64,000 nucleotides of DNA from Squalus acanthias (GCA_030390025.1 CM059432.1:60886001-60950000), one strand, 5' to 3'. Shown: positions 2,966 to 62,241, numbered from the stretch's first letter. Program-made: numbers and translations. The notes: generated by a model not told the origin, from the letters alone.

Positions 2966-3848
2966 GGGGGAGAAATTCAGTATCGCCCCATTTGGGGCGC
3001 AATTATCGGCCTGGGCGCAAAGATTAGCGCCTGGCGCTAATTATCGCCACCGACTGCAAACTTGACTTTTATCGCCCCTGGAGGTGATTGGAACGCTAAA
3101 TCAGGCGCTTCACACCTGTCTTAAGGTGCAAAGGCCGAGGAGCGAGGCGCTACCTCAGAGCGCTGGCGAAGCTCATGTGATGTCAGTTAGCAATGGAACA
3201 CACACACAATGGCCCCGGCCAGTTCTTAAAGGGGATGGTTGATCTTGCTTTCCATCCACATCCTGCTCATTGCAGCCTTGAATCTCGGCCTGGAGAGACC
3301 TGCACATCAAATCTTCTGGAAAGAACAATGGAGAGCTCAGAGTGCAGCCCCCCACAGTCTCTTCTAAATCGATACAAGTAAGGGCAAATCAAAATGAACC
3401 TGCAAAGTGCTGCTCTGTACCCAAAACTCCTTCACACAGCGTTGAATTTCTCCAGACGTCTCTCTCTCTCTCTCTCTCAGAATGCGTGGTTCAAAAATGT
3501 CACCAACAATAAAAGGCAGGAAGTGGTCGCCTTTAAATAGTGCTCCCCCAGTCCCTTCATGACTGTAAAACGCTCCCCTCAACCTGTCGTTGCTAGCGGC
3601 AGGTGGTAAGGCAGGGGGCGCCACTCAATATCCGCTCCGGGGCGATACCGGGGCGTTGCGCACTCGACTGACGTCACGATCTGCCGGCGCAGGAGATCGT
3701 GGCGGTAGTGTTTAGCACCGCCGCAAAATGTCTAGTTAATTTCGCGAGCGGCGCAAACATCGCCGCGCCTGGGCGCTAGATGCTTTGCGCCCCATTAGCG
3801 CCCTCTTAAGGCGCTAACGGGAGGCGCAACCAACTGAATTTTTCCCCC
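2966..3848. mobile_element. Harbinger-type MITE nested in CR1
   Basis: TIR GGGGGAGAAATTCAG / CTGAATTTTTCCCCC, GC-rich subterminal regions; CR1 resumes afterwards. Confidence 0.85.
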
Positions 3849-6195: not shown

Positions 6196-8067
6196 AATCA
6201 ACGGATCAGACCAACGAATCAGATCAAAGCTCTGCAGTCCTGCCACATCCAGTCGTGAATGGTGGTGGACCATTAAACAACTGACGGGAGGAGGAGGCTC
6301 CATGAACATCACCATCCTCAATGATAGCAGAGCCCAGAAATCAATGCAAAAGACAAGGCTGAAGCGTTTGCAACCATCTTCAGCCAGAAGTACCGAGTGC
6401 ATGAATTATCTCAGCCTCCTCCTGAGGTCCCCACCACCACAGAAGCCAGTCTTCAGCCAATTCGATTCATTCTACGTGATATCAAGAAACGACTGAGCAC
6501 ACTGGATACAGCAAAGGCTGTGGGCCCCGACAACATCCTGGCTGTCGTGCTGAAGACTTGTGCTCCAAAACTAGCCGCACCTCTAGCCAAGCTATTCCAG
6601 TACAGCTACAACACTGGCATCTATCCGACAATGTGGAAAACTACCCAGGTATGTCCTGTCCACAAAAAGCAGGACAAATCCAATCCGGCCAATTATCGTC
6701 CCATCAATCCACTCTCAATCATCAGCAAAGTGATGGAAGGTGTCGTCAACAGTGCTATCAAGCGGCACTTACTCACAAATAACCTGCTCACTGATGCCCA
6801 GTTTGGGTTCCGCCAGGACCACTCGGCTCCAGACCTCATTACAGCCTTGGTCCAAGCATGGACAAAGGGGCTGAATTTCAGAGGTGAGGTGAGAGTGATT
6901 GCCCTTGACATCAAGGGAGCATTTGATCAAGTGTGGCATCAAGGAGCCCCAGTAAAACTGAAGTCAATGGGAATCGGGGGAAAACTCTCCACTGGCTGGA
7001 GTCATAACTAGCACAAAGGAAGATGGTTGTGGTGGTTGGAGGTCAATCATCACAGCCCCAGGACATCGCTGCAGGAGTTCCTCAGGGCAGTGTCCTAGGC
7101 CCAAACATCTTCAGCTGCTTCATCAATGATCTTCCCTCCAGCATAAGGTCAGAAATGGGGATGTTCACTGATGACTGTAGTGTTCAGTGCCATCCGCAAC
7201 TCCTCAGATAATGAAGTAGTCCATGCCCACATGCAGCAAGACCTGGGTGACATTCAGGCTTGGGCTGATAAGTGGCAGGTAACATTCACGCCACACAAGT
7301 GCCAGGCAATGACTATCACCAACAAGCGAGAGTCTAACCACCGCCCCTTGACATTCAATGGCATTACCATCGCCAAATCCCCCATCATCAACGTCCTGGG
7401 GGTTACCGTTGACCAGAAACTTAACTGGACCAATGACATAAATACTGTGGCAACAAGAGCAGGTCAGAGGCTAGGTATTCTGCGGCGAGTGTCTCACCTC
7501 CTGACTCCCCAAAGCCTTTCCACCATCTACAAGGCACAAGTAAGGAGTGTGATGGAATACTCTCCACTTGCCTGGATGAATGCAGCTCCAACAACACTCA
7601 AGAAGCTTGACACCATCCAGGACAAAGCAGCCCGCTTGATTGGCACCCCATCCACCACCTTAAACATTCACTCCCTCCACCACCGGCGCACCGTGGCTGC
7701 AGTGTGTACCATCTACAAGATGCACTGCAGCAACTCGCCAAGGCTTTTTCAGCAGCACCTCCCAAACCCGCGACCTCTACCACCTAGAAGGACAAGCGCA
7801 GCAGGTGCATGGGAACACCACCAGCTCCAAGTTCCCCTCCAAGTCACACACCATCCTGACTTGGAAATATATTGCCTTTCCTTCATCGTCGCTGGGTCAA
7901 AATCCTGGAAATCCCTCCCTAACAGCACCATAGGAGTACCTTCACCACACAGACTGCAGTGGTTCCAGAAGGCGGCTCACCAGCACCTTCTCAAGGGCAA
8001 CTAGGGATGGGCAATAATGCTGGCCTTGCCAGCGATGCTCAGATCCCATGAATGAATTAAAAAAAAA
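6196..8067 (+). mobile_element. 5'-truncated non-LTR retrotransposon, family B (CR1/L2/Jockey-group RT, clade unresolved)
   Basis: ORFs 6397..7011, 7023..7211, 7171..8004 with [32 protein letters not shown]; ends ATGAATGAATTAAAAA. Confidence 0.9.
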
Positions 8068-8459
8068 CTAGGCACATCTGACTAAATCACCAGAGAGTAT
8101 CATTACTTTTTACCAAAAAGTATCTATAGTAAAAAATCTTAGTTTTGTACTTAAAAAAAGTGCCCTGACTTCCATCAGAAGTTTGATATAAATAGAACAT
8201 GCAATAGGAATCTGTTAAATATAATAAATATTTCAGGAATGATGCATTGGCACAATCCCCATTCATTACTTTATTACCATCCTTGGACATTACTATGGGT
8301 AATGGGAAGAAATCCCCAAGAAATAATAAAGAATTTACTTGCTGTAGGAAGACAACAGAAGTAAATCTTCTGTAATGCCTCTCTGTAGACATAAACGCTG
8401 CCCTTGATTTAAAACATCTGGGTTTTTTCACACTACTGAATCTTGAAGCAACACTGTCT

Positions 8460-15012: not shown

Positions 15013-18000
15013 TTTTTTAAAATTCATACCTGGGATGTGGGTGTCGCTGGCAAGGCCAGCATTTATTGCCCATCCCTAATTGCCCTTGAGAAGGTGCTGG
15101 TGAGCCACCGCCTTGAACCGCTGCAGTCCGTGAGGTGAAGGGACTCCCACAGTGCTATTAGGAAGGGAGTTCCAGGATTTTGACCCAGCGACGATGAAGG
15201 AATGGTGATATATTTCCAAGTCAGGATGGTGTGTAACTTGGAGGGGAACTTGCAGGTGATGGGGTTGCCATGCGCCTGCTGCCCTTGTCCTTCTAGGTGG
15301 TAGATGTTGTGGGTTTGGGAGGTGCTGCCGAAGAAGCCTTGGCGAGTTGCTGTGCATCTTGTAGATGGTACACACTGCAGCCACGGTATGCCGGTGGTGG
15401 AGGGAGTGAATGTTTAAGGTGGTGGATGAGGTGCCAATCATGCGGGCTGCTTTGTTCTGGATGGTGTCGAGCTTCTTGGGTGTTGTTGGAGCTGCACCCA
15501 TCCAGGCAAATGGAGAGTATACCATTATACTCCTGACTTGTGCCTTGTAGATGGTGGAAAGGCTTTGGGGAGTCAGGAGGTGAGACACTCACTGCAGAAT
15601 ACCCAGCCTCTGACACCCTCTTGTAGCCACAGTATATATGTGGCTGGTCCAGTTAAGTTTCTGGTCAATGGTGACCACCAAGATGTTGATGATGGGGGAT
15701 TCGACGATGGCAATGCTGTTGAATGTCAAGGAGAGGTGGTTAGACTCTCGCTTGTTGCCGATAGTCATTCCCTGGCATTTGTGTGGCGCGAATGTTACTT
15801 GCCACTTATCAGCCCAAGCCTGAATGTTGTCCAGGTCTTGCTGCATGCGGGCATGGACTGCTTTATTATCTGAGGAGTTGCAAATGGAACTGAACACTGC
15901 AATCATCAGAGAACATCCCCACTTCTGACCTTATGATGGAGGGAATGTCATTGATGAAGCAGCTGAAGATGGTTGGGCCTAGGACACTGCCCTGAGGAAC
16001 TAGTGCAGCGATGATTGACCTCCAACCACCACAACCATCTTCCTTTGTGCTAGGTATGACACCAGCCAGTGGAGCGTTTTCCCCTGATTCCCATTGACTT
16101 TAGTTTTACTAGGGTTCCTTGATGCCACACTCGTTCAAATGCTGCCTTGATGTCAAGGGCAGTCACTATTACCTCACCTCTGGAATTCAGCTCTTTTGTC
16201 CATGTTTGGACCAAGACTGTAATGAGGTCTGGAGCCGCATGGTCCTGGCGGAACCCAAACTGAGCATCGGTGAGCAGGTTATTGGTGAGTAAGTGCTGCT
16301 TGATAGCACTGTCAACGACACCTTCCATCACTTTGCTGATGATTGAGAGTGGACTGATGGGGCGGTAATTGGCTGGATTGGATTTGTCCTGCTTTTGTGG
16401 ACAGGCCATACCTGGGCAGTTTTCCACATTGTTGGGTAGATGCCAGTGTTGTAGCTGTACTGGAACAGCTTGGCTAGAGGCGCGGCTAGTTCTGGAGCAC
16501 AACAGCCAGGATGTTGTTGGGGCCCATAGCCTTTGCTGTATCCAGTACACTCAGCCGTTTCTTGATATCACGTGGAGTGAACCGAATTGGCTGAAGACTG
16601 GAGTCTGTGATGGTGGGGACCTCAGGAGGAATCCGAGATGGATCATCCACTTGGCACTTTCTGGCTGAAGATGGTTGCAAACGCTTCAGCCTTATTTTTT
16701 GCACTTACGTGCTGGCTCCACCATCATTGAGGATGGGGATATTCATAGAACCTCCTCCTCCCGTTAGTTGTTTAATTATCCATCACCATTCACGACTGGA
16801 TGTGGCAGGACTGCAAAGCTTTGATCTGATCCGTTGGTTGTGGGTTCGCTTAGCTCTGTCTATAGCATGCTGCTTCCGCTGTTTAACATGCATGTAATCC
16901 TGTGTTGCAGCTTCCCCAGGTTGGCACCTCATTTTTTAGGTATGCCTGGTGCTGCTCCTGGCATGCTCTTCTGCACTCCTCATTGAACCAGGGTTGGTCC
17001 CCTGGCTTGATGGTAATGGTAGAGTGAGGGATATGCCAGGCCATGAGATTACAGATTGTGGTGGAATACAATTCTGCTGCTGCTGATGGCCCACAGCGCC
17101 TCATGGATGCCCAGTTTTGAGCTGCTAGAGCTGCTCTGAATCTATCCCATTTAGCACGGTGGTAGTGCCACACAACACGATGGAGGGTATCCTCAGTGTG
17201 AAGTCGGGACTTCATTTCCACAAGGACTGTGCGGTGGTCACTGTTACCAATGCTGTCATGGACAGATGCATCTGCAACATGTAGATTGGTGAGGATGAGG
17301 TCAAGTAGGTTTTTCCTTGTGTTGGTTCTCTCACCACCTGTCGCAGTCCTAGTCTGGCAGCTATGTCCTTCAGGACTCGACCAGCTCGGTCGGTAGTGCT
17401 GCTACCGAGCCACTCTTGGTGATGGACATTGAAGTCCCCCACCCAGAGTACATTCTGTGCCCTTGGTACCCTCACTGCTTCTTCCAAGTGGTATTCAACA
17501 TGGAGGAGTACTGATTCATCAGCTGAGGAAGGGCGGTAGGTGGTAATCAGCAGGAGGTTTCTTTGTCCGTGCTTGACCTGAAGCCACGAGACTTCATGGG
17601 GACCAGAGTCAATGTTGAGGACTCCCAGGGCCACTCTCTCCCGACTGTATACCACTGTGCTACCACCTGCCGGTGGGACCGAACATACCCAGGATGGTGA
17701 TGGAGGAGTCTGGGACATTGGCTGAAAGGTCTGATTCTGTGAGTATGACTGTGTCAGGCTGTTGCTTGACTAGTCTGTGGTACAGCTCTCCCAATTTTAG
17801 CACAAGTCCCAAATGTTAGTGAGGAGGACTTTGCAGGGTCCACTGGGCTGGGTGTGCTGTTGTCATGTCCGAAGCCGGTGCCGAGGTCAATGCCGGGTGG
17901 TCCGTCCGGTTTTATTCTTATTGTTTCTTGTAGCGGTTTGTTACAATTGAGTGGCTTGCTAGACCATTTCAGAGGGCAGTTAAGAGTCAACCACATTGTT

Positions 18001-18245
18001 GTGGGTCTGGAGTCACATATAGGCCAGACCAGGTAAGGACGGCAGATTTCCTTCCTTAAAGTTCATTAGTGAACCAGATGGGTTTTTACGACAATTACTG
18101 ATATTAGCTTTTTATTCCAGATTTATTTAATGAACTGAATTTAAATTCCCCAGCTGCCGTGGTAATAATTGAACTGACGTCTCTGAATCATTTGTCCAGG
18201 CCTGTGGGTTACTAGACCAGTAACCAATAACCACTCTGCTACCGT
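15013..18245 (-). mobile_element. Apparently full-length (~3.2 kb) family B LINE: tRNA-like 5' head, one frameshifted APE-RT ORF, 3' tail
   Basis: APE motifs (TTYRP, WVGDFNVHH in ORF 17212..17718), RT motifs (16050..16550, 15589..15906), C-terminus 15076..15588; no room for an ORF1 between the head (18245-17950) and the APE start (~17820). Confidence 0.88.
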
Positions 18246-18305
18246 TCGCGCGCTGCAATTGTCGACCTCCCCTAACAGCGACCAGCTGAACAGGAGTAAA
18301 GAAGT

Positions 18306-18428
18306 ACAATAGCAAAATACTGCGGATGCTGGAAATCTGAAATAACAGAAAATGCTGGAAACACTCAGCAGGTCAGGCAGCAGATGCTGCCTCGGCCTGC
18401 TGAGTGTTTCCAGCATTTTCTGTTATTT
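18306..18428. mobile_element. PLE-terminus fold-back mini-insertion
   Basis: PLE terminal sequence followed by its own inverted copy; flanked by the 14-bp direct repeat AGGAGTAAA(G/A)AAGT. Confidence 0.8.
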
Positions 18429-22430: not shown

Positions 22431-25340
22431 TAGAATCATAGAATCATAGAAAGTTACAGCACGGAAGGAGGTCATTTCGGCCCATCGTGTCCATGCCGGC
22501 CAACAAAGAGCTATCCAGCCTAATCCCACTTCCCAACTCTTGGTCCGTAGCCCTGCAGGTTACAGCATCCCAAGTGCATATCCAAGTACTTTTTAAATGT
22601 GGTTAGGGTTCCTGCCTCTACCACCCTTTCAGGCAGTGAGTTTCAGACCCCCACAACCCTCTGGGTGAAGAAATTTCCCCTCAAATCCCCTCTAAACCTT
22701 CCACCAATTACTTTAAATCTGTGCCCCCTGGTTTTTGACCCCTCTGCTAAGGGAAATAGGTCCTTTCTATCCACTTTATCTATGCCCCTCATAATTTTAT
22801 ACACCTCAATAAGGTCTCCTCTCAGCCTCCTCTGTTCCAAGGAAAACAGACCCAGCCTATCCAATCTTTCCTCATAGCTAAGATTCTCTAATCCCGGCAA
22901 CATCCTTGTAAATCTCCTCTGTACCCTCTCTAGTGCAATCACATCTTTCCTGTAATGTGGTGACCAGAACTGCACGCAGTACTCTAGCTGAGGCCTAACT
23001 AGTGTTTTATACAGTTGAAGCATAACCCCCCTGCTCTTGTATTCTATGCCACGGCTGATAAAGGCAAGCATTCCGTATTCCTTCTTAACCACCTTATCTA
23101 CTTGGCCTGCTACCTTCAGGGATCTGTGGACATGCACTCCAAGGTCCCTTTGTTCCTCTACACTACTCAGTGTCCTACCATTTAATGTGTATTACCTTTC
23201 CTTGTTAGCCCTCCCCAAATGCATTACCTCACACTTCTCCGGATTGAATTCCATTTGCCACTGTTCTGCCCACCTGACCAATGTATTGATATCTTCCTGC
23301 AGTCTACACAGCCGATTTTAGTATCATCTGCAAACTTCTTAATCATACCCCCTATATTCAAGTCAAGATTGTTGATATATACCACAAAAAGCAAGGGACC
23401 TAGTACTGAGCCCTGCGGAACCCCACTGGAAACAGCCTTCCCAGTCACAAAAACACCCATCAACCATTACCCCACCACCAAACGCATCTTCCCCTCACCT
23501 CTCCTTTCAGCATTCCGTAGGGACCGCTCCCTCCATGACACCCTGGTCCACTCCTCCAACACCCCTTCCCCTTCGCCCGGCACCTTCCCGTGCAAGCGCA
23601 GGAGATGCAACACATGCCCTTATACCTCCCCCCTTCCCACTGTCCAGGGCCCTAAACACCCCTTCCAGGTGAAACAGCGATTTACTTGTACTTCTTGCAA
23701 TTTGGTATACTGTATTCGCTGCTCACGATGCGGTCTCCTCTACATTGGGGAGACCAAATGCAGATTGGGTGACCGCTTTGCCGAACACTTCCGTTCAGTC
23801 CGTAAGGGGGACCCCGAGCTTCCGGTCGCCTGTCACTTTAATTCACCGCTCCACTCCCACTCAGACCTCACCATCCTCGGCCTCTTGCATTGTTCCATGG
23901 AAGCTCAGCGTAAGCTCGAGGAACAGCACCTCATCTTTCGATTAGGCACTTTACAGCCTTCTGGACTCAACATAGAGTTCAACAATTTCAGATCATAACC
24001 TGGCCCCGATCATATATATATTTTTTATCCACACTTTTTGTTTGTGCCTTCTGTTCTTCTCTCCCACGTGGCAGCTGTCTTTCATTCTGCCAGCGCAATT
24101 TACACTTCATCTAGAGCCATCCTTTGTTTCTTAACCTGTCCCATTACCATCTCCTTTTGCCTTGAATATCTCTTAATATCTCTTAACCTCTCCTGCCTTC
24201 TATCCTATCATAGACCTTCCCTTTTGTTCTTTCATCCCCTCCCCATTTCCCAGCCCCTACCCTTGCTTAAAAATCTGTTCCATTTCCTGCTTTTTTCCAG
24301 TTCTGATGATCATTGACCTGAAACGTTAACTCTGTTTCTCTCTTCACAGATGCTGCCTGACCTGCTGAGTATCTCCAGCATTTTCTGTTTTTATTTCAGA
24401 TTTCCAACATCTGCAGTATTTTCTTTTTGTATTACCCTCTGCTTCCTGTCTCCGAGCCAGTTTTGAATCCAACTTGACACTTTGCCCTGGATCCCATGGG
24501 CTTTTAACTTCGTGACCAGTCTGCTATGTGGAACCTTATCAAAAGTCTTGCTAAAGTCCATATACACTACATCAAACGCACTACCCTCATCTACCCTCCT
24601 TGTTACCTCCTCAAAAAATTCAATCAAGTTTGTCAGACACGACCTTCCCTTAACAAATCCATGCTGACTATCCTTGATTAATCCGTGTCTTTCTAAATGA
24701 AGATTTATCCTGTCCTTCAGAATTCTTTCCAATAATTTTCCCACCACTGAGGTTAGGCTGACTGGCCTGTAATTACTCGGTCTATCCTTTTCTCCCTTTT
24801 TAAACAGGGTACCACATTAGCAGTCCTCCGGCACCACACCTGAAGCCAGAGAGGATTGAAAAATGATGGACAGGGCCTCTGCTATTTCTTCTTTTGCTTC
24901 GTTTAACAGCCTGGGATACATTTCATCCAGGCCTGGGGATTTATCCACCTTTAAAGCTGCTAAACCCCTTAATATTTCCTCTCTTACTATGTTTATTTCA
25001 TCTAATATTTCACACTCCTCCACCCCGATAGCAATGTCTGCTTCGCCCCTCTCCTTTGTGAAAACAGACGCAAAGTATTCATTAAGAACCCTACCGACGT
25101 CTCCCACCTCCACACACAGATTACCCTCATGATCTCTAATAGGCCCTACCCTTTCTTTAGTTATTCTCTTACTCTTAATATATTTATAAAACATCTTTGG
25201 GTTTTCCTTGATTTTACTTGCCAAGAATTTTTCATGCTCTCTCTTTGCTTTCCTAATATCATTTTTAATTGCACCCCTGCACTTTCTGTACTCCTCTAAA
25301 GATTCTGGAGTATTTAGCCCTCGGTATCTGTCATACACCA
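22431..25340 (-). mobile_element. 5'-truncated CR1 LINE interrupted by a PLE
   Basis: ORFs 24817..25341, 24391..24747, 23224..23463, 22643..23137 carry consecutive ORF2 segments; (TTCTATGA)n tail. Confidence 0.92.
23473..24430 (+). mobile_element. 5'-truncated Penelope-like element (GIY-YIG endonuclease and terminus)
   Basis: CKRRRCNTC...NLVYCIRCSRCGLLYIGETK...EH...GLN ending at 23998; ATTACCC duplicated on both sides; degenerate hammerhead at 24299-24331. Confidence 0.9.
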
Positions 25341-47491: not shown

Positions 47492-47749
47492 CTGGAGCTA
47501 GCACACACAGGCACAAAGACTGATCCAGTTTTCCTCCCCCTCTGTGCCTAGCCCATGCTTGTGCTGCTGGCACATGGGAGCAGAATTTAGCCCAAATGCA
47601 ACTGGCCCACAGTTTGTGCAATGCTGTGTTTTAATTTAAATACATTCTCTAATGAGACATTGTATACCTTTGTCCTTGGCATCCCCTCCATGACTAATCA
47701 ATAAACCACTGTGCTGCCAGATAAAATCCGCCTATTTTATTTGACAGGT

Positions 47750-50020
47750 TTTTAAAAATGTATTCATTCATGGGATGTGGGCGTCACTGGCAAGGCCAGC
47801 ATTTATTGCCCATCCCTAGTTGCCCTTGAGAAGTTGGTGGTGATCTGCCTTCTTTAACTGCTGCAGTTCATGTGGTGAAGGTACTTCCACAGTGCTGTTA
47901 GGTAGGGAGCTCCAGGATTTTGAGCCAGCGACAATTAAGGAACGGTGATATATGTCCAAGTCAGGATGGTGTGTGACTTGGAGGGGAACTTGGAGGTGCT
48001 GGTGTTCCCATGCACCTGCTGCCCTTGTCCTTCTAGATGGTAGAGGTCGCGGGTTTGGGAGGTGCTGCCGAAGAAGCCTTGGTGAGTTGCTGCAGTGCAT
48101 CTTGTAGATGGTACACACTGCAGCCACGGTACGCCGGTGGTGGAGGGAGTGAATGTTTAAGGTGGTGGATGTGCTGCCGATCAAGCGGACTGCTTTGTCC
48201 TGGATGGTATCGAGCTTCTTGAGTGTTGTTGGAGCTGCACTTAACCAGGCAAGTGGAGAATTTTCCATCACACTCCTGACTTATGCCTTATAGGTAGTGC
48301 AAAGGCTTTGGGGAGTCAGGAAGTGAGTCATTCGCCGCAGAATATCCAGCCTCTGACCTGCTCTTGTAGCCACAGTATTTATATTCATTCACAGGATCTG
48401 GGCATCGCCAGCATTTATTGCCCATCCCTAATTGCCCTTTGATACAACAGAGGGCAGTTAAGAGTCAACCACATTGCTGTGGGTTTGGAGTCACATATAG
48501 ACCAGACCAGGTAAGGACAGCAGATTTCCTTCCCTGAAGGATATTAGTGAACCAGATGGGTTTTTACGACAATCTGGTAGTTTTATGGTCACCATTACGA
48601 GCTTTTTATTTCAGATTTATTTAATTGAATTTAAATTTCCCAGCTGCCATGGTGGGATCTGAACTCTGGATCATTAGTCCAGGCCTCTGGATTACTAGTC
48701 CAGTAACATAACCACTATGCTACTGTACCCTATCATATAGCCACAGTATTTATGTGGTAGGTCCAGTTAGGTTTCTGGTCAATGGTGACTCCCAGAATGT
48801 TGATGGTGGGGGATTTAATGATGCTAATGCCATTGAATGTCAAGGGGAGGTAATTAGACTCTCTCTTGTTGAAGATGGTCATTGCCTGGTACTTGTGTGG
48901 CGTAAATGTTACTTGCCACTTATCAGCCCAAGCCTGGATGTTGTCCAGGTCTTTCTGCATGTGGGCATGGTCTGCTTCATTATCTGAGAAATTGCGAATG
49001 GAACTGATAACTGCAATCATCAGCGAACATCCCCACTTCTGACCTTATGATGGAGGGAAGATCATTGATGAAGCAGCTGAAGATGGTTGGGCCTAGGACA
49101 CTGCCCTGAGGAACTCCTGTTCTAGGGATGAAATGATTGGCCACCAATAACCACAACCATCTTCCTTTGTGCTAGGTATGACTCCAGCCACTGAAGAGCT
49201 TTCCCCCGATCTCCAGTTTTACTTGGGCTTCTTGGTGGCACTCTGATGTCAAGGGCAGTTATTCTCAACTAGCCTCTGGAATTCAGTTCTTTTGTCCATG
49301 TTTGGACCAAGGCTGTAATGAGGTCTGGAGCCGAGTGGTCCTGGCGGAATTCAAACTGAACATCAGTGCACAGGTTATTGGTGAGTAAGTGATGCTTGAT
49401 AGCACTGTCGATGACACCTTCCATCACTTTGCTGATGATTGGGACTAGGCTGATAGGACGGCAATTGGCCGGATTGAATTTGTCCTGCTTTTTGTGGACA
49501 GGACATACTTGGGCAATTTTCCACTTTGTCGGGTAGATGCCAGTTTGTAGCTTTACTAGAACAGCCTGGCTAGAGGCGCAGCTAATTCTGGAGTCTTCAC
49601 AGCACTACAGCTGAGATGTTGTTGGGGCGCATTGCCTCTGTTGTATCCAGTGCGCTCAGCTGCTCCTTGATATCATGTGGAATTAATAGAATTGACTGAA
49701 GACTGGCATCTGTGATGTTGGGGACCTCAGGAGGAGGCCGAGATGGATCATCCACTCAACACTTCTGGCTGAAGATGGTTGCGAAAGCTTCAGCCTTGTC
49801 TTTTGCACTCACATGCTGAGCTCCATTATCGTTGAGGATGGGGATGTTCTTGGAGTCTCCTCCTCCCATTAGTTGTTTAAGTGTCCACCACCATTCATGA
49901 CTGGCTGTGGCAGGATGACAGAGCTTTGATCTGATCTGTTGGTTTGTGGGATCGCTTAGCTCTGACTATAGTATGCTGCTGTTTAGCATGCATGTAGTCC
50001 TGCGTTGTAGCTTCACCAGG
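47750..50020 (-). mobile_element. 5'-truncated family B LINE with nested SINE
   Basis: Colinear with 15013-16920; ORFs 47816..48271 and 48733..49020. Confidence 0.9.
48383..48737 (-). mobile_element. tRNA-derived SINE with family B LINE 3' tail
   Basis: Box A TAGCATAGTGG, anticodon-like arm CTGGA-CTAGTAA-TCCAG, box B GAGTTCAGATCCC; tail AAGGGCAATTAGGGATGGGCAATAAATGCTGG...TGAATGAAT; 16-bp TSD TAGCCACAGTATTTAT. Confidence 0.9.
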
Positions 50021-51599
50021 TGTGGAATGCAAGATGCATGATACAAACTGCATTTTGTACCATCAAGAGTAATTTATTCTGATGTTGATCATAATCAAGC
50101 ACATGTCGATACCTTTAAGAATGTTTCAATTAAATGTATCATATGATCAATAATATATAAAATGTGTAAGGCTGTGGGCTTTCAGTTTACAATGATAAAA
50201 CAGCAATGAAAAAACATAATTGATACCATTTTTGATGTTGCTTCACAATAAGGATAACAGTTATAGAAAGTAAAACCATTGGTTAAAGCCCTGTTTATCA
50301 TAGTCCTCATGGTGTGGCTTTTCTCTTAGTTTCGGAATACTTTAGTAGGTTTTACAGAATACATTAATACACTGGGAATTTTTCTGTGCTCTTGTAGAAA
50401 ATAGCAAAGCTGTATTCTGTGGTAATACAAAAGTGACCATGGAGGAATTGCTTCAATCCATAGACTCCTTTGAAACTAGCAGAGTTCCTTGACCTCATTG
50501 TTTCTTCAGTGAGTTCTCCAAATGTTGTCTCTGGAATTGGCTTCTGTCCTTCACCACATTACGAATTCTAACTCAAATCCTGACACTTGTTCAATACATC
50601 TATTTCCTTTAAAAATTGGCAAAGATCCCCACACATGTTTCCGCAGGATTCATTTCTTGTATTGTGATTCAGGTTTTACCAAAATTCTAGTTAACTATCT
50701 GAATAGATTTATTCCCTAATTGCTCCACCCTGGTTCGACAGGCTTTATCTGTCAAAGATACTTGTATGATAATGTCTGATGATTTTTAAATGCTGCAGCA
50801 TCTTTGGAAGGTACCAACTTTGTACTTTCTTGGCGCTTTGACCAAGTAAAGTGATTTTTCTTGCGAGTGATACTGCAGACTATGGGATTTGGGGAAGCCT
50901 TTACTAGGTGGATTACCTAATGTACTTTGATTCTTGATCTTTGGTAATTACCAATGAGATTCTGTTACTCTGTTTTGAATTCTTCAGGGGCACTCAGAAG
51001 GAGGTGCCCGTTTTCTTCCCCACTCTTTGCGTCGGTTATCAAACACTTACACTGCCAGTGTACATACTTCCCCTGATAGCTGAAGCATTTAAATGGTGGC
51101 AGTGAACACAATATATAGACGTTTTATATATTAGCTTTCTCAGCTCTATGTTCTGGGTCTCTGGGTATAAGATCTATTTTAATAAGTGGGAGCCCATGGA
51201 TTTAGGTCAAACCTTGGTGTTGCTGAGCCCTCTTTGGCTCTCCCTCTCCTCAGTGTCCCTGTGCTTCCTTTGAGTCTTCCTCTCTATAATGCTGAAGCAA
51301 AGTACAATTCAAAATGTTGGAAAATGCACAAAAAATGTGTCAAAAGTCAAAACTTCCTGGGAGACATGCCCTCAGACACCCCTAGAAATAAATTTTGTAC
51401 CATCAGTTTATTTCCCCTTTCAGAATTTAAAAAATCCACCACTTCAAAAATTGATCTTTTCTGTACCTAAAGTACAACTGGTGAAATACTGGGTATAACT
51501 ACAGCTAGGATTCATATCCCACTGCACTCACATTCTAACTATCTTTTTTCATATGTCATACATGAGGTCAATGGGTTTTAGTATTTTCAGAAAAACAAC

Positions 51600-51931: not shown

Positions 51932-54508
51932 TTGTTTTTTAGTCATTTTTTTGGGGTCTGTGTCAGCTTTTGGGTGGAGATAAGGAATAATAAGGGGAAA
52001 AAAACATTAGTGGGCGTAGTCTATAGGCCTCCGAACAGTTGCAACTCTATTGGACGGAGTATCAATCAGGAAATAGTTGAGGCATGTAATAAGGGAACAT
52101 CTATAATTATGGGGGATTTTAACTATCATATTAATTGGACAAATCAAATGGGGCAGGGCTGCCTTGAGGATGAGTTCATTGAGTGTATTAGGGATGGGTT
52201 TCTTGAGCAGTATGTAACTGAACCGACCAGGGGGCAAGCAACCTTAGATCTGGTCCTGTGTAACGAGACAGGATTAATTAAAAATGTCCTAGTAAAGGAT
52301 CCCCTTGGAATGAGTGACCATAACATGGTTGAATTCCATATTCAATTAGAGGGTGAGAAGGTTGGATCTCAAACAAGCGTGCTAAGCTTGAATAAAGGAG
52401 ACTATGAAGGTATGCGAGCGGAATTGAGTAGAGTGGATTGGGAAAATAGATTAAAGGGTAAGACGACACATGATCAGTGGTGTACATTCAAGGAGTTATT
52501 TTACAACTTCCAAAAAAAATATATTCCACTGAAAAGAAAAGGGTGTAAAAGAAAGGACAGTCATCCGTGGCTAAGTAAAGAAATTAAGGATAGTATTCGA
52601 CTAAAAACAAGGGCATATAAGGTAGCGAAATCTAGTGGGAGGACAGAGGATTGGGAAAACTTTAAAAGGCAGCAAATAATAACAAAAAGATTGATTAAGA
52701 AAGGGAAGATAGATTATGAAAGTAAATTAGCAAAAAATATAAAAACAGATAGTAAGAGTTTTTATAGTTATATAAAAAGAAAAAGGGTGGCTAAAGTAAA
52801 TGTTGGTCCCTTAGAGGATGAGACCGGGAAATTAATGGTGGGAAATATGGAGATGGCAAAAACACTGAATGAATATTTTGTATCAGTCTTTACAGTAGAG
52901 GACACTAAGAATATCCCAACACTGGACAAACAGGGGGCTATAGGGGGAGAGGAGCTAAACACGATCAAAATCACTAAGGAAGTGGTACTCGGTAAAATAA
53001 TGGGACTCAAGGCGGATAAATCACCTGGACCTGATGGCTTACATCCTAGAGTCTTGAAGGAAGTGGCGGTAGGGATTGTAGATGCATTGGTAATAATTTT
53101 TCAAAACTCCCTGGATTCCGCTAAGGTCCCGGCAGACTGGAAAACTGCTAATGTAACACCCTTATTTAAAAAGGGCAGTAGACAGAAGGCTGGTAACTAT
53201 AGACCGGTTAGCCTAACATCTGTGGTAGGTAAAATTTTGGAGTCCATTATTAAGGAAACAGTAACAGGACATTTGGATAATCATAATTTAATAGGACAAA
53301 GTCAGCATGGTTTTACGAAGGGGAAGTCATGTTTGACAAATTTGCTGGAGTTCTTTGAGGAAGTAACATATAGAGTGGATAAAGGGGAACCAGTGGACGT
53401 AGTGTATTTGGACTTCCAAAAGGCATTTGACAAGGTGCCACACAAAAGATTATTGCTTAAGGTAAAAAATCACGGGATTGGGGGTAATATTCTGGCATGG
53501 ATAGAGGATTGGCTATCTAACAGAAAGCAAAGAGTTGGGATAAATGGTTCATTCTCAGACTGGCAATCAGTAACTAGTGGTGTTCCACAGGGGTCAGTGC
53601 TGGGTCCCCAACTCTTCACAATCTATATTAACGATTTGGAGGAAGGGACCAAGTGTAACATATCAAAATTTGCAGATGATACAAAGATGGGAGGGAAAGT
53701 AGTGAGTGAGGAGGACATAAAAAACCTGCAAGGGGACATAGACAGGCTAAGTAAGTGGGCAGAGATTTGGCAGATGGAATACAACACTGGAAAGTGTGAG
53801 GTGATGCACTTTGGCAGGAAAAATCCTAGAGCAATTTATTATCTTAATGGCAAGAAACTGGAGAGTACTGAAGTGCAAAGGGATCTGGGGGTCCTGGTGC
53901 ACGAAACTCAAAAGGTTAGTATGCAGGTGCAGCAAGTGATTAAGAAGGCAAATGGAATGTTGGCTTTCATTGCTAGGGGGATAGAATATAAAAATAGGGA
54001 GGTATTGCTTCAGTTGTACAAGGTATTGGTGAGACCGCACCTGGAATACTGCATACAGTTTTGGTGTCCTTACTTAAGGAAAGACATCCTTGCTCTCGAG
54101 GCAGTGCAAAAAAGGTTCACTCGGTTAATCCCGGGGATGAGGGGGTGGTCATATGAGGAGAGGTTGGGTAGATTGGGACTCTACTCATTGGAGTTCAGAA
54201 GAATGAGAGGCGATCTTATTGAAACATATAAGATTGTGAAGGGGTTGGATTGGGTGGATGCGGGGAGGATGTTCCCGATGACGGGTGAGACGAGAACTAG
54301 GGGACATAGTCTTAGAATAAGGGGCTGCTCTTTCAAAACTGAGATGAGGAGGAACTACTTCACTCAGAGGGTGGTAGGTCCATGGAATATGCTGCCACAA
54401 AAAGCTGTAGAAGCTACAACATTAATTAAATTTAAAACAGAAATAGACAGTTTCCTAGAAGTAAAGGGCATTAAGGGTTACGGGGAGCGGGCAGGAATTT
54501 GGACATGA
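51932..54508 (+). CDS. CR1 ORF2 (partial AP endonuclease plus complete reverse transcriptase), open for 858 codons; true N-terminus missing
   Basis: GVVYRPP, MGDFN, SDH (APE); [40 protein letters not shown] (RT). The first ~12 residues are flanking DNA. Confidence 0.9.
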   Translation: MFFSHFFGVCVSFWVEIRNNKGKKTLVGVVYRPPNSCNSIGRSINQEIVEACNKGTSIIMGDFNYHINWTNQMGQGCLEDEFIECIRDGFLEQYVTEPTRGQATLDLVLCNETGLIKNVLVKDPLGMSDHNMVEFHIQLEGEKVGSQTSVLSLNKGDYEGMRAELSRVDWENRLKGKTTHDQWCTFKELFYNFQKKYIPLKRKGCKRKDSHPWLSKEIKDSIRLKTRAYKVAKSSGRTEDWENFKRQQIITKRLIKKGKIDYESKLAKNIKTDSKSFYSYIKRKRVAKVNVGPLEDETGKLMVGNMEMAKTLNEYFVSVFTVEDTKNIPTLDKQGAIGGEELNTIKITKEVVLGKIMGLKADKSPGPDGLHPRVLKEVAVGIVDALVIIFQNSLDSAKVPADWKTANVTPLFKKGSRQKAGNYRPVSLTSVVGKILESIIKETVTGHLDNHNLIGQSQHGFTKGKSCLTNLLEFFEEVTYRVDKGEPVDVVYLDFQKAFDKVPHKRLLLKVKNHGIGGNILAWIEDWLSNRKQRVGINGSFSDWQSVTSGVPQGSVLGPQLFTIYINDLEEGTKCNISKFADDTKMGGKVVSEEDIKNLQGDIDRLSKWAEIWQMEYNTGKCEVMHFGRKNPRAIYYLNGKKLESTEVQRDLGVLVHETQKVSMQVQQVIKKANGMLAFIARGIEYKNREVLLQLYKVLVRPHLEYCIQFWCPYLRKDILALEAVQKRFTRLIPGMRGWSYEERLGRLGLYSLEFRRMRGDLIETYKIVKGLDWVDAGRMFPMTGETRTRGHSLRIRGCSFKTEMRRNYFTQRVVGPWNMLPQKAVEATTLIKFKTEIDSFLEVKGIKGYGERAGIWT

Positions 54509-54743: not shown

Positions 54744-54924
54744 TTCTTAGTTTTGTAGGTGGGCACTTATGAATAAATGACATATAAGCAGAAATAACAA
54801 CAGAAAATGCTGGAAACACTCAGCAGGTCAAACTGTACTATAGAGTACAGGTCATGGAGACTTAGTAGAGTAAAAGAAAACAGTTTGTATATAGTTCCTG
54901 TAAAATCAAACCTGCTTATATGTC

Positions 54925-56137
54925 AATAGCAAAATACTACAGATGCTGGAAATCTGAAATAACAACAGAAAATGCTGGAAACAGTCAGCAGGTCAGGCAG
55001 CATCGAGGAGAGAGAAACAGAGTCAACGTTTCGAGTCGGGGACCCTTTGTCAGGACTGGAAAAGGTTAGAGAAGAGAGATTTTTAAGCAGGGGCAGGGAG
55101 GAGGGGAGGAAAGAACAAAGGGAAGGTCTGTGATAGGATGGAAGGCAGGAGAGATTGACTGACAAAAGGGATGATGGTGCAAGGCAAAAGGAGAGATAAT
55201 GGGACAAGTTAAGAAACAAAAGATGGCTCTAGATGAGGTGTGAATGATGATGGCAGCATCATTAACAGCTACCATGTGAGAAAACAAGCGAAAAAAATAA
55301 AAATATAAAGAAATACAGGTTATAGTCTGAAATTGTTGAACTCGATGTTGAGTCCAGAAGGTTGTAAAGTGCCTAATAGAAAGATGAGATGCTGTTCCTC
55401 GAGCTTATGTTGAACTTCGTTGGAACAGTGTAAGAGGCCGAGGACAGAGAGATCAGAGTGGGAGTGGAGGGGAGAATTAAAATGACAGGCGACCGGAAGC
55501 ACCAGGTCATGCTTGCGGACTGAACGGAGGTGTTCTGCAAAGCGGTCAGCCAATCTGCGTTTGGTCTCCCCAATGTAGAGGAGACCGCATTGTGAACAGC
55601 GAATACTGTATACTAATTTGTAAGAAGTACAATTAAATCGTTGTTTCACCTGGAAGGAGTGTTTGGGGCCCTGGACAGTGGGAAGGGAGGAGGTGAAAGG
55701 GCAGGTGTTGCATCTCCTGCGCTTGCATGGGAAGGTGCCGGGCGAAGCGGAAGGGGTGTTGGGGGCAATAGAGGAGTGGACCAGGGTGTCGCGGAGGGAG
55801 CAGTCCCTTCAGAATGCTGAAAGGGGGGGCGGGGGGATGAGGGGCAGATGTGTTTGGTGGTGGGATCACGCTGGAGGTGCCAGAAATGGCGCAGGATGAT
55901 CTGTTGAATGTTGAGGCTGGTGGGGTGAAAAGTGAGGACAAGGGGAACCCTATTGTGGGAGGGAGGGAAGGGGTGAGAGCAGAAGTGCGGGAAATAGAAC
56001 GGACACGGTCAAGGGCCGTGTCAACCACGGTCAAGGGCCGTGTCAACCACGGTCAAGGGCCGTGTCAACAAGCAAGACATACCGGAAGCACCAGTATGGA
56101 AGGTGGCATCGTCAGAACAGATGCGGCGGAGACGGAG
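54925..56137 (-). mobile_element. 5'-truncated Penelope-like element with inverted terminal copy
   Basis: GIY-YIG ORF 55320..55649 (LVYSIRCSQCGLLYIGETKRRLADRFAEH); hammerhead-like motifs with a core mutation (CTGACAA) at 55021-55057 (-) and 56553-56589 (+). Confidence 0.92.
56004..56069. repeat. 22-bp perfect triplication inside the PLE
   Basis: CACGGTCAAGGGCCGTGTCAAC x3; single copy in the homologous PLE at ~61496-61517. Confidence 0.95.
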
Positions 56138-58266
56138 AATTCTCCCCTCCACTCCCACTCTGATCTTTCCGTCCTCGGCCTCTTACACTGTTCCAACGAA
56201 GTTCAACATAAGCTCGAGGAACAGCACCTCATCTTTCTATTAGGCACTTTACAGCCTTCTGGACTTAACATCGAGTTCAACAATTTCAGACTATAACCTG
56301 TATTTCTTTATATATTTTTTCTCTTGTTTTCTCACATGGTAGCTGTTAATGATGCTGCCATCATCATTCACACCTCATCTAGAGTCATCTTTTGTTCTTA
56401 ACTTGTCCCATTATCTCTCCTTTTGCCTTGCACCATCATCCCTTTTGTCAGTCAATCTCTCCTGCCTTCCATCCTATCACAGACCTTCCCTTTGTTCTTT
56501 CCTCCCCTCCTCCCTGCCCCTGCTTAAAAATCTCTCTTCTCTAACCTTTTCCAGTTCTGACAAAGGGTCCCCGACTCGAAACGTTGACTCTGTTTCTCTC
56601 TCCACGATGCTGCCTGACCTGCTGACTGTTTCCAGCATTTTCTGTTGTTATTTCGGATTTCCAGCATCTGTAGTATTTTGCTATTGACATATAAGCAGGT
56701 TTGATTTTACAGGAACTATATACAAACTGTTTTCTTTTACACTACTAAGTCTCCATGACCTGTATTCCACAGTACAGTTTGAGTAATTATATAGAAATCT
56801 TACTGCAGACATCAAAAAAGAAATGTATTCATCAAAGTGTTCATTATCATCCAAATTTCATAGACTTGAACAAGTCAGTAACCTAGTGAGCTGCAGCGGT
56901 AAAACTTCACTGATTAATATCAGCTCTGAAACAAACCTAAAGATCACTTTTGAAAACAAGCTAAGCTAAAAATTCTTTCCAATTATTTGCATTATAAAGT
57001 GATAATATTTTGAGTTTTATCAAATATAAAAATAGTTGCATAGTATATCTCAATATATAGCTTTGTTATACTTATGATTAATCAGAAATGTTTAGTATGA
57101 CAAAGAGACAATTTGCTAAACAATTATGGGCACTACTGGAAATGGTTGCCATTTGAACTGCTAGGCTTCCATTCAAACTGCATCTTTCTGTATACCTGGC
57201 AGGCCACTAAAATGTTAGACCTAATGATAACAAAGATGAGTTCCTATATTCAACGGAAATCCAACTAATCAAATGATTACAGCTAATATGCAACAGGATT
57301 AAGATGAAAAGGCCAAGAAGCTGGAAGCCTTTTTTCTCATAATATAAAATAAAACAACTCTAGATGGTGAGTGGATACGGTTAAAAAGCTGCAACTTGCG
57401 CATCAAATTTAATTTGAATACTCATGTCATCCTCCTTTGAAAAATAAATGTGTTCTAAAACAAGAATTTAAATACAATTTTTCCTGAGCATTGCTACTTT
57501 TGATAATATGGCTCCTGCCTTGAGGCAACTATCCACCTCCTTGTTTACTTCTTTATATCTGGCAAGCAGTCTACAAAAAATTGTGTTACCAGGTAACAAT
57601 CTTCACTGAAATGCAGAGGTTCTAAAGGTATAGGGCATTAATCCTTTGAAGAACTGCATCAGTATCTCCATTGCATACAAAAATAAATACAAAATATTAA
57701 CATCTTCCATTTTACTTGTATAGTATGGGGCTGAAAATCTGCAGCTGTTACAGACTCCTAAATTTGGTGGGAGTCTGCCAGAACAGCTGTAAGCTTGCCT
57801 AGAGACTAGCTACGCCAGGATTTTGGGATGGCCTTGTGGGGTGGCGATTACACGCACCCCCACAAGCCCATCGATATGAGAGGAGATCCTTCCTATGTTG
57901 CGAGTTCCTGCGCCCTGGCCCTCAGTCGAGACCTGACATAGTAACAGCATAGGTATCCCTGGTCTTACCAGGTGTATGTCGCTAACATCTAGCAGAAATG
58001 AGGCCCACCTGGGAGTCTAGGCTGGGATTCCCCCTGAAGATCAGGGGTGCAATTTTTTTTATTTTTAAAGCGACCCTCCCAAGAACAGGTTTGGAACCTT
58101 TGCCCCGTCCCGGTAACCTTCGGCCAGTATTTCAGGCCTCTTTGGTAAGGACAGCGGGGGCACCACAGATGCCATCCCCAAACCAACAAAAGCCCACTTC
58201 CTTCTGGACAGTGGTGGAGTCTATCCCTCCCAACACACCCATGGATTTTTGGGCATTATATACATA

Positions 58267-59940: not shown

Positions 59941-60533
59941 GAGTATGCAGCTTGTTTGCTTGACTGCTCCTGGGGCCACTGAATCTCACCAAGCCCGAAC
60001 TCTTTGCTTTGATGAGGAGACGTTGGAGCCATGATTTCCTGCCTAATTCTGGGGATGTAACTAGGCAGGTGGGGGTGATGATCTATTACACAGGATCTCT
60101 TCCCACTTTAGTCCCCACCATCATTTCCAGCGTACCACAAAGTGCCTGTCCATTTTTGGTTGGGTAGATATAAATGCAGCAGTAATGATGTGCTGATGCA
60201 TCCATCCCAGTTTCCATCATTACTGCTGCACTTGCATTTAATGGTGATCAGATCTGTGTAAAATAGTGTCCAGGATTTCAAGACACTGGGGGAAAGGTGG
60301 AAGTAAATTTAAAGAACCAAGCAACGGGGGCACATTAATGCCCGGGCTTGCAGAGCCCCTGTCCAGGAGATGCAGCCAAATATGGGGTCCCCGCCAGGCT
60401 CGGCCAGCCTCATCCAAAAGGCCTGTTACAATCTGATGAGCTCAGCCGCTGCTCAGCCTCAGCTGGGAACCCAGCTTAACTGAAGCAGAATAAAAACAGA
60501 CACATCAGGCAGCATCGGTGGAGAGAGAAACAG

Positions 60534-60570
60534 AGTTAACGTTTCAGGTCGATGACCTTTCGTCAGAACT
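60534..60570 (-). ncRNA. Minimal type I hammerhead ribozyme motif (core intact)
   Basis: Minus strand AGTT-CTGACGA-A-AGGTC-ATC-GACCT-GAAA-CGT-T-AACT. Confidence 0.75.
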
Positions 60571-62241
60571 GGAAAAAGTTAGAGATATAACAGTTTTTAA
60601 GCAAGTACAGAGGCAAAGAAAGGGGGGAGGGGAGGAAAGAACAAAAGGGAAGGTCTGTGATAGGATGGAAGACAGGAGAGATTAAATGACAAAAGGGATG
60701 ATGGTGCAAGGCCGAAGGGGCAGGTAAAGAAAAGAAACAAAAGATGGGTCTAGAGGAGCTGTAAATGGCAACAGCAGAACCAGTACTAGCACTTGCTGTC
60801 CAAAGAAATGGGAGCAGTGGTTATGATCTGAAATTGTTGAACTCAATTTTGAGTCTGGAAGGCTGTAAAGCACCTGATCGAAAGATGAGGTGCTGTTCCT
60901 CGAGCTTCCGTTGAGCTTCGTTGGAACAGTGGAGGAGGCCGAAGACAGAGAGGTCAGAGGAGGAGTGGGACGGAGAATTAAAACGGCAAGCCACCGGAAG
61001 TTCAGGGTCATGCTTGCAGACTGAATGAAGGTGTTCACCAAATCTATCACCCAATCTGCGTTTGGTCTCCCTAATGTAGAGGAGACCGCATCGTGAGCAG
61101 CGAATACAGTATACTAAATTGAAAGTACAAGTAAATCACTGTTTCACCTGGAAGCAGTGTTTGGGGCCCTGGATGGTGGGAAGAGAGGAGGTAAAAGGGC
61201 AGGTGTTGCATCTCCTGCGCATGAATGGGAAGGTGCCGTGGGAAGGGGAACGGGTGTTGGGGGTGATGGAAAAGTGGATCAGAGTATCGCAGAGGGAATG
61301 GTCCCTTCGGAATGCTGAAAGGGGAGGGGAAGATTTGTTTGGTGGTGGCATCCCGCTAGAGGTGGCAGAAATGGCAGAGGATAATCTGTTGTATGTGGAG
61401 GCTGGTAGGGTGGAAGGTGAGGACAAGGGGTACTCTATCATGGTTCTGGGAGAGAGGGGAAGGGGTGAAGGCAGAAATTAGGGAAATGGGACAGACATGG
61501 TTGACGGTCCTGTCAATCATGGTGGAGGGGAATCCTCGGTTGAGGAAAAAGTAAGACATATCAGGAGCACTGGTGTGGACGGTGGCATTGTCAGAACAGA
61601 TGTGATGGAGATGGAGAAACTGGGAGAATGGAATAGAGTCCTTAAAGGAAGCGGGGTGGAAGGAAGTGTAATCAAGGTAGCTGTGGTAGTCAGTGGGCTT
61701 ATAGCAGATATTGGTCGACAGCCTATCCCCAGAAATGGAGATAGAGAAGTCAAGGAAGAGAAGGGAAGAGTCGGAGATGGACCAGGTGAAGGCGAGGAAA
61801 TTGGAAGCAAAGCTGATGACATTTTCCAGTTCAGGGCAAGAGCAGGAAGTGACACCGATACACTCATCAATGTACCAGAAAAATGTTGAGGGAGGGGTCC
61901 TGTGCAGGACTGGAACAAAGAATGTTCCACATATCCCATGAAAAGGACCCATACGGTTTCCATAGCAACACCTTATATTTGGAGGAAGTGAGTGGAGTCA
62001 AAGGAGAAGTTGTTCAATGTAAGAACAAGTTCAACCAGGCAGAGGATGGTGTTGGTGAATAGTGATTGGTTGGGTCTCCATTCAAGGAAGAAGCAGAGGG
62101 CCCGCAGGCTGTCCTAACGGGGGATTGATGTGTAGAGGGACTGGACGTCTATGGTGAAAAGGAGATGGTTAGGGCCAGGAAACTGGAAAGGATTTTCTAA
62201 CCTTTTCCAGTTCTGAAGAAAAGTCATCGATCTGAAACATT

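Follow-up and report, generated by a model that had tools for sequence, protein, structure and literature searches.

In the 64,000-nucleotide stretch of Squalus acanthias DNA analysed here, the whole of which is called the window, positions 15013-18249 of the minus strand are occupied by a long interspersed nuclear element (LINE) of the Zenon type, which is full-length but decayed and is composed of a tRNA-like head, a body, a single frame for an APE endonuclease and a reverse transcriptase (RT), a short 3' untranslated region (UTR) and an A-rich tail. The copy shares 91.7% identity (BLAST) with the majority sequence of its family, which has been built from 27 long copies and is about 3.3 kb in length, and its 12 frameshifting indels within 15013-18249 mark it as dead. 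All parts of the element lie on the minus strand. The tRNA-derived head (18154-18249), recognised by Rfam tRNA matches and by isotype comparison, has not preserved its acceptor stem. It comprises box A (18231-18241, reading TAGCAGAGTGG in the window copy), a first hairpin resembling an anticodon arm (18204-18220, with a CTGGA/TCCAG stem in most copies), a second hairpin (18183-18199), which either repeats the first over 21 bp or represents a long variable arm and is missing from some copies (L015, L019), and box B or T-arm (18165-18176). The original prediction, made from the window's sequence, had proposed one arm between box A and a degenerate box B, followed by a central block; pairwise alignment has upheld this series with two hairpins in place of one, and the degeneracy of box B holds for the window copy, whereas the family majority reads AGTTCAAATCC. 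The family 5' end has been placed at 18249, 8 nt upstream of box A, rather than at 18245 as first proposed. Downstream of the head, an A-rich linker (18108-18134) bears three AATAAA/ATTAAA hexamers in the family majority and is possibly the relic tail of a tRNA retrocopy, and it is followed by a conserved body (17970-18092) that is common to the LINE and all its short derivatives. The single open reading frame (ORF, 15076-17940, broken in the window copy) consists of a basic leader, the APE domain (17240-17826, ends approximate; Pfam PF14529/PF03372 and motif positions) and the RT domain (15670-16400, ends approximate; Pfam PF00078 and motif positions). The 3' UTR, delimited from the sequence, contains an AATAAA and a short A tail (15013-15075), in which the window copy has a private TTTT (15019-15022). 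As predicted, the head leads into the APE-RT frame without an ORF1, the frame opening at about 17940 and the APE motif starting at about 17826.

In the family majority, which likewise has no ORF1 and a single ORF with Pfam APE and RT domains, this frame extends over 973 codons from stop to stop with its first in-frame Met at codon 287, and the other frames reach at most 120 codons on the sense and 129 codons on the antisense strand. ORF changes common to at least four of the 27 copies have shown a ratio of nonsynonymous to synonymous changes (pN/pS) of 0.20 and no stops, compared with 0.48 for changes found in two or three copies and 0.88 for singletons, so that the ORF was functional in the head-bearing lineage. 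APE-RT proteins of 865-995 residues, with 45-48% identity, are its best protein relatives. As the called starts of some relatives (P0001, P0002, P0007) also fall inside the APE domain, the missing early AUG does not count as support for RNA polymerase III (Pol III) transcription. In the majority, a different frame that starts with AUG and runs for 76 codons (about 17995-17770, minus strand) overlaps the main ORF start; its AUG context is kept in all seven published Zenon rows treated below, the frame itself, as judged by eye, not being open in all of them. In a tree of 73 RT sequences, a set with no labelled Zenon protein, the family sits among metagenome relatives and apart from the CR1 and L2 of the source genome (33% and 28% identity, respectively). 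Viral contigs have yielded two distant RT matches, which were not used, and the PDB yielded L1, R2 and group II intron RTs only. Most of the 103 3' ends listed, about seven of which are false matches, are short A-rich tails without a microsatellite. In 19 of the 103 listed tails a run of at least four T stands just before or inside the A tail and may be either a product of tail decay or a terminator like that of T+ SINEs (short interspersed nuclear elements).

The window family corresponds to the elasmobranch Zenon LINEs reported by Stuart et al. (2026, PMC13343379). All of these, described from five elasmobranch species, lack ORF1 and end in a poly-A tail, a feature that among CR1-group elements is unique to Zenon, and the rows concerned (SquAca_Zenon-1, -2 and -3, CarCar_Zenon-1, RhiTyp_Zenon-1, ScyCan_Zenon-1 and HypSab_Zenon-1) are 2.9-3.3 kb long. 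Over the first 400 nt, compared by eye, the window family is nearly identical to SquAca_Zenon-1, all seven elasmobranch rows from the five species open with the same head, body and ORF start, with a box B reading GGTTCGAATCC in three of the species, and the three non-elasmobranch rows (two hagfish, one coelacanth) open without the head. A motif search of the first 400 characters of each row has found the body motif in six rows and the head motif in two, all of them Zenon. No structural difference from these published elements has been found. The novelty considered in the original prediction is thereby narrowed, since the LINE family is already published as sequence; a comment on the head has not been met in the main text of that paper, where the words 'tRNA' and 'promoter' occur 0 times and where head, terminator loss and SINE pairing are undescribed.

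The head as a fixed part of the family

The APE start (17700-17960) has been searched in the 3.7-Gb source genome, from which 40 of 5155 candidates were scored and 30 loci kept. Among the 29 loci other than that of the window, 16 extend to element position 13 or less, two to positions 20-26, and 11 are truncated at positions 54-270; no alternative sequence common to the 5' ends adjoins them in these 29 loci, and flank matches are few. In 77 distinct heads, G stands 61 times at position -8 relative to box A, 66 times at -7 and 62 times at -6, with mixed bases farther upstream, by which the 5' end of the family has been shown to be sharp. Exact genome matches amount to 1182 for a 40-mer of the head, 2063 for a 22-mer across the body-to-ORF junction and 481 for a 22-mer across one SINE junction, whose first 20 checked loci all join body and tail. 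These counts are lower bounds, as the copies average 95.4% identity to the majority, and reversed-pattern controls gave 0. The first 20 body-to-ORF loci continue into the ORF in 16 cases, are short in three and neither in one, and the first 30 head loci comprise 18 with head plus tail, eight that enter the ORF (two via a jump to the ORF middle) and four head fragments. Head, ORF and tail have been found in one piece in at least 14 other copies. In addition, contigs of four other DNA sequencing runs, whose organisms may be close kin, span the whole head-to-APE stretch, and among the pieces listed body and ORF start are bridged in three of the runs (X1, X5 and X7, not X14).

The presence of the head on other full-length copies had been proposed as a check of the original prediction, and one fixed head-body-ORF junction has indeed been found in them. 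It rules out a chance SINE insertion upstream of a single LINE copy and confirms the tRNA-like head as a fixed feature of the family. Target-site duplications around copies with head and ORF were not clear on inspection; among 58 complete short and long copies, seven have a flank match of at least 7 bp, compared with 1.1 expected, and most are without any. Large internal deletions that retain both ends have been seen in many of the head-bearing copies, namely L061, L064, L067, L074, L076, L157, L161 and L167, which suggests frequent template jumps.

Regarding the source of the head, the Rfam tRNA model matches it in six of six loci with 23-27 bits, the cut-off being 29. A search pattern for the stem and T-arm, shaped in part after tRNA-Leu, has given 467 genome matches, of which those listed are nearly all tandem tRNA-Leu(AAG) genes. 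In isotype comparison the head reached z values of 6.9-7.3 for Leu versus 1.6-4.8 for Met, Lys and Cys, and is thus most like tRNA-Leu(AAG) among these four isotypes; tRNA-Gln has a similar anticodon stem. At about 100.83-101.09 Mb of contig C1 (L355-L364) there is a long tandem array with a period of about 2 kb, in which tRNA-Leu(AAG) occurs with tRNA-Met(CAT), and arrays of tRNA-Lys that repeat every 1.8 kb or so are found on C29 and small contigs. All 12 non-vertebrate relatives scanned were without a tRNA match, and 137 scattered calls by ARAGORN at a lowered threshold in 80 metagenome loci have been treated as noise. The conserved body has no likeness by eye to the Meta, UCON3 and Deu domains in the supplement of PMC7245038 (the Deu alignment in part), and a MetaSINE identity, prompted by an AGT loop, has been ruled out by eye against the Meta consensus.

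The tRNA-like fold might serve as a processing signal, at which RNase P or a similar nuclease would free the element from longer Pol II co-transcripts (Pol II, RNA polymerase II) much as ribozymes at the 5' end do in R2, RTE and Ingi. The 5' end is no more than one base away from where a mature tRNA would start, and other LINE clades are known to cleave themselves at the 5' end (PMC5786205). Such processing is nonetheless very improbable, as only two of seven acceptor-stem pairs can form when read from the sequence, RNAalifold has found no cloverleaf for nine heads (nor any compensatory pairs, whose absence is uninformative for copies of one master), and the loss of terminators described below would be left unexplained.

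Short derivatives built from both ends of the LINE

A short non-coding derivative (SINE) lies at 48383-48730 (minus strand) and joins head and body to the ORF end and 3' UTR. Self-BLAST has aligned 17970-18245 with 48448-48726 (292 bp, 80.8%, E 1.8e-73), which agrees with the earlier claim that the 5' 290 bp or so of the LINE are homologous to the SINE, and the claimed join to the LINE tail has been recovered between 48401-48439 and 15049-15087 (94.9%), with a common 3' stretch of 40-70 bp. The SINE had been drawn through 48737; it ends at 48730, seven extra bases stand on its 5' side at 48731-48737, and an exact 16-bp target-site duplication (48367-48382 and 48738-48753) encloses both. It was inserted inside another copy of the same LINE, which is 5'-truncated (47749-50021, minus strand) and 86-93% identical to the family majority, and a further 5'-truncated copy is found at 6207-8072 (plus strand, 94.6%).

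The junctions have been mapped in 71 rows, in which some loci appear twice. The 5' part of the short elements ends at element positions 227-450 and the 3' part starts at 3131-3257, and among many single junctions several recur, namely 328|3210 (a class inflated by a search aimed at it), 300|3206-3210, 346|3170-3173 and 306|3218. Many private secondary deletions have been observed besides, and the longest short elements retain the first and last ORF codons. An origin of the short elements by deletion from the LINE fits these sequences. The original prediction is supported: it had offered, in one of its two readings, the SINE as an internal-deletion product of the LINE, and the short elements are indeed constructed from the LINE's two ends. 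The several recurring junctions rule out a single SINE with a single junction, and several amplified lineages take its place. Among 54 short elements, a set partly chosen by likeness to the window SINE, the diagnostic base at position 4 occurs in 30 copies versus 6 of 48 long copies, and that at position 171 in 37 versus 8 of 48; this enrichment indicates that the short elements multiplied as lineages of their own. The window SINE carries both short-lineage bases (T at position 4, C at position 171).

The presence of these bases in 6 and 8 of the 48 ORF-bearing copies would also be expected if the head did not belong to the master LINE and had been re-added repeatedly by reverse transcription switching from LINE RNA to abundant SINE RNA via the shared body, and some head exchange may occur. 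As an account of the family this can hardly be credited, since no other 5' end has appeared in the 29 loci, most ORF-bearing copies have head haplotypes of their own (C at position 26 in 11 of 48 versus 1 of 54 short copies), and the loss of terminators runs through the ORF.

The short element shows the traits of a SINE2, i.e., a tRNA-derived head with box A and box B, a non-coding sequence, the 3' tail of a partner LINE and multiplication as a unit. With the SIDE class it has in common that only the Zenon 5' and 3' ends are present, but not the lack of tRNA homology and of a Pol III promoter. The lepidopteran Persaeus SIDE (PMC6740152) likewise joins the 5' UTR and ORF start of a Zenon to its ORF end and 3' UTR, and like the shark elements it arose several times with microhomology at the breakpoints; it is described as having neither tRNA homology nor a Pol III promoter, whereas the shark LINE and its derivatives carry the tRNA-like head. 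The bipartite SINEs Bov-tA, CoeSINE4/5, SINE2-1_ACar and SINE2-1_EBu also combine a tRNA head with LINE 5' and 3' parts (PMC5786205, PMC7245038). According to the account in PMC5786205, their head was added to a non-autonomous derivative and their middle part comes from RTE and Vingi only, and SINEs acquire heads after becoming non-autonomous; in the shark case, the head sits on the autonomous CR1-group LINE itself. Other tRNA-headed SINEs of sharks, rays and chimaeras, i.e., HE1 (V), SacSINE1 (Deu) and SINE2-1_CM (CORE), share only the tail with HER1 or L2-type partners (PMC3747384, PMC5499810), and have been set apart by their published descriptions and, for the Deu pieces, by eye.

Terminator loss and the route of transcription

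The shortest known Pol III terminators are TTTT and TVTTT (PMC8466645). A sense-strand scan of the 3.3-kb majority, suggested together with the original prediction, has found neither of them, compared with 7.1 expected from base shuffles (P 0.0014), 3.5 expected from synonymous-codon shuffles (P 0.009) and 22 present on the antisense strand. On the majority sense strand there is no run of four T, while A, C and G runs number 17, 11 and 9, respectively, and TTTT alone, at 0 versus 4.0, is modestly depleted against the base shuffle (P 0.018). The depletion extends to TTT (5 versus 11.4 expected, P 0.001) and to windows with four T in five positions (1 versus 9.8, P 0.003), both against codon shuffles, under which the A, C and G analogues of the terminator class have shown no depletion. 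Control ORFs contain TTTT or TVTTT close to expectation (17 versus 18.5 in CR1, 8 versus 8.6 in L2), raw copies of the family contain 0.15 T4 per kb compared with 4.3 in CR1 and 5.1 in L2, and T4 is present in every one of 35 metagenome relatives with more than 2 kb matched, most of them being richer in T. Seven AATAAA/ATTAAA hexamers occur in the majority versus one or two expected, four of them within the first 360 nt, an arrangement that would sit poorly with a Pol II mRNA.

Taking into account the head at the family 5' end and the absence of sense-strand Pol III terminators, we consider it likely, with a probability of roughly 55%, that the element is an autonomous LINE driven by Pol III, which would make a full-length RNA that is both translated and reverse-transcribed. 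In the ancestor of sharks and rays, a tRNA-Leu-like head would have been fused onto a Zenon element, by a template switch onto a tRNA retrocopy or a SINE. As for Alu, Pol III would then start at the head, pass the A tail and read on to the next run of T in the genome; translation of the uncapped RNA would take a non-AUG or cap-independent route, and target-primed reverse transcription would begin in the A tail. Since an internal deletion of the full-length RNA would leave the promoter where it is, its products would be SINEs from the outset. The complete proposal, namely an autonomous coding LINE transcribed end to end by Pol III since before the shark-ray split, with an APE-RT of 970 residues translated from a 3.3-kb RNA that has neither cap nor start AUG, and with SINEs arising by internal deletion, is put forward tentatively and with a little less than even chances.

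Several points weigh against transcription by Pol III, the case for which is made from signatures in the sequence. For TTTT alone the depletion is only borderline (P 0.018 in the base shuffle; 0 versus 1.6, P 0.17, dinucleotide shuffle; 0 versus 2.0, P 0.10, synonymous-codon shuffle), the TVTTT class was added only after the TTTT results had been seen, and the element is T-poor overall (19.7%). The copies stem from few masters, so that the terminator test amounts to one evolutionary observation, and none of 40 sites one step from TTTT has been hit by shared changes, a comparison of very low power. The individual heads stay below the Rfam cut-off, ARAGORN calls no tRNA in three of three head loci, and no intact copy occurs among loci L001-L060, where the longest open frame is 490 aa. 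Moreover, RNAs made by Pol III carry no cap, and the tail is preceded, at a distance of 40 nt, by a normal AATAAA, as in a Pol II mRNA. The processivity of Pol III has been held to confine elements of this kind to short lengths (PMC10886601).

Some of these points would be expected if Pol II transcribed the LINE and its internal promoter lay within the head or body, with the tRNA head as a passenger or helper kept for the SINE derivatives or for TFIIIC binding, and with the scarcity of T runs due to composition or to selection at the mRNA level. The AATAAA upstream of the tail and the non-significance of TTTT alone under dinucleotide or codon shuffles are in line with this alternative, a cap would make translation simple, the lepidopteran Zenon derivatives are reported without a Pol III promoter (PMC6740152), and the standing rule assigns LINEs to Pol II (PMC10886601, PMC5786205) and SINEs to Pol III (PMC10886601). 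We regard it as unlikely, if far from negligible, as it predicts neither that TTTT and TVTTT should be lost from one strand only and in no other family, nor a 5' end 8 nt upstream of box A, nor the retention of both boxes across sharks and a ray alongside a variable spacer, nor the presence of four poly(A) hexamers within the opening 360 nt. The labour may also be split, in that a Pol III RNA is reverse-transcribed and the protein is supplied in trans by other copies, whose read-through transcripts would be made by Pol II and capped. Terminator avoidance would then be accounted for without translation of uncapped RNA, and the 18 short derivatives among the first 30 head-bearing copies indicate that mobilisation in trans is efficient; the purifying selection on the ORF (pN/pS 0.20) is, however, easier to understand if one RNA is both copied and translated, and we judge such a division to be improbable.

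If Pol III does make the full-length RNA, the element would provide a natural long protein-coding Pol III transcript, by which the reading range of Pol III and the translation of an uncapped RNA without a start AUG become testable; a Pol III-made RNA for a protein-coding element would be unexpected. Parallels in this respect are Cassandra, Helenus and Ajax (TRIMp3; PMC10886601), which likewise captured a small-RNA gene as a probable Pol III promoter. As described there, these are long terminal repeat (LTR) elements, non-autonomous and 0.3-1.3 kb in length, without protein, in contrast to the 3.3-kb coding non-LTR element of the sharks. Zenon sequences, Zenon deletion derivatives, bipartite SINEs and Pol III-headed non-autonomous LTR elements are already known, and in the literature searched an autonomous LINE bearing a tRNA head has not been met with, though an earlier mention may stand in Repbase or Dfam. 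A LINE that itself bears a Pol III head in thousands of copies, in sharks and rays, opens a direct route from LINE to SINE, and if Pol II makes the RNA, the result would still be a curated LINE family with an unremarked SINE-type head.

Neighbouring features

Besides the Zenon copies, the window contains an uninterrupted APE-RT frame of 858 codons at 51932-54508 (plus strand), probably a young copy, which served as a control and which we take, from its motifs, to be a vertebrate-type CR1. Fragments of a Penelope-like element lie at 54828-56782, 23471-24422 and 60494-61997 and are presumably of the GIY-YIG kind, to judge from their motifs; the first of them contains a 651-bp inverted repeat of 96.8% identity (54828-55478 and 56138-56782). 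Immediately upstream of the LINE head, at 18305-18428, a near-perfect 90-bp palindrome derives from the end of the same Penelope-like repeat, and a similar palindrome interrupts the head in L168. At the start of the window, positions 1-244 form a tandem repeat with a period of 26 bp.

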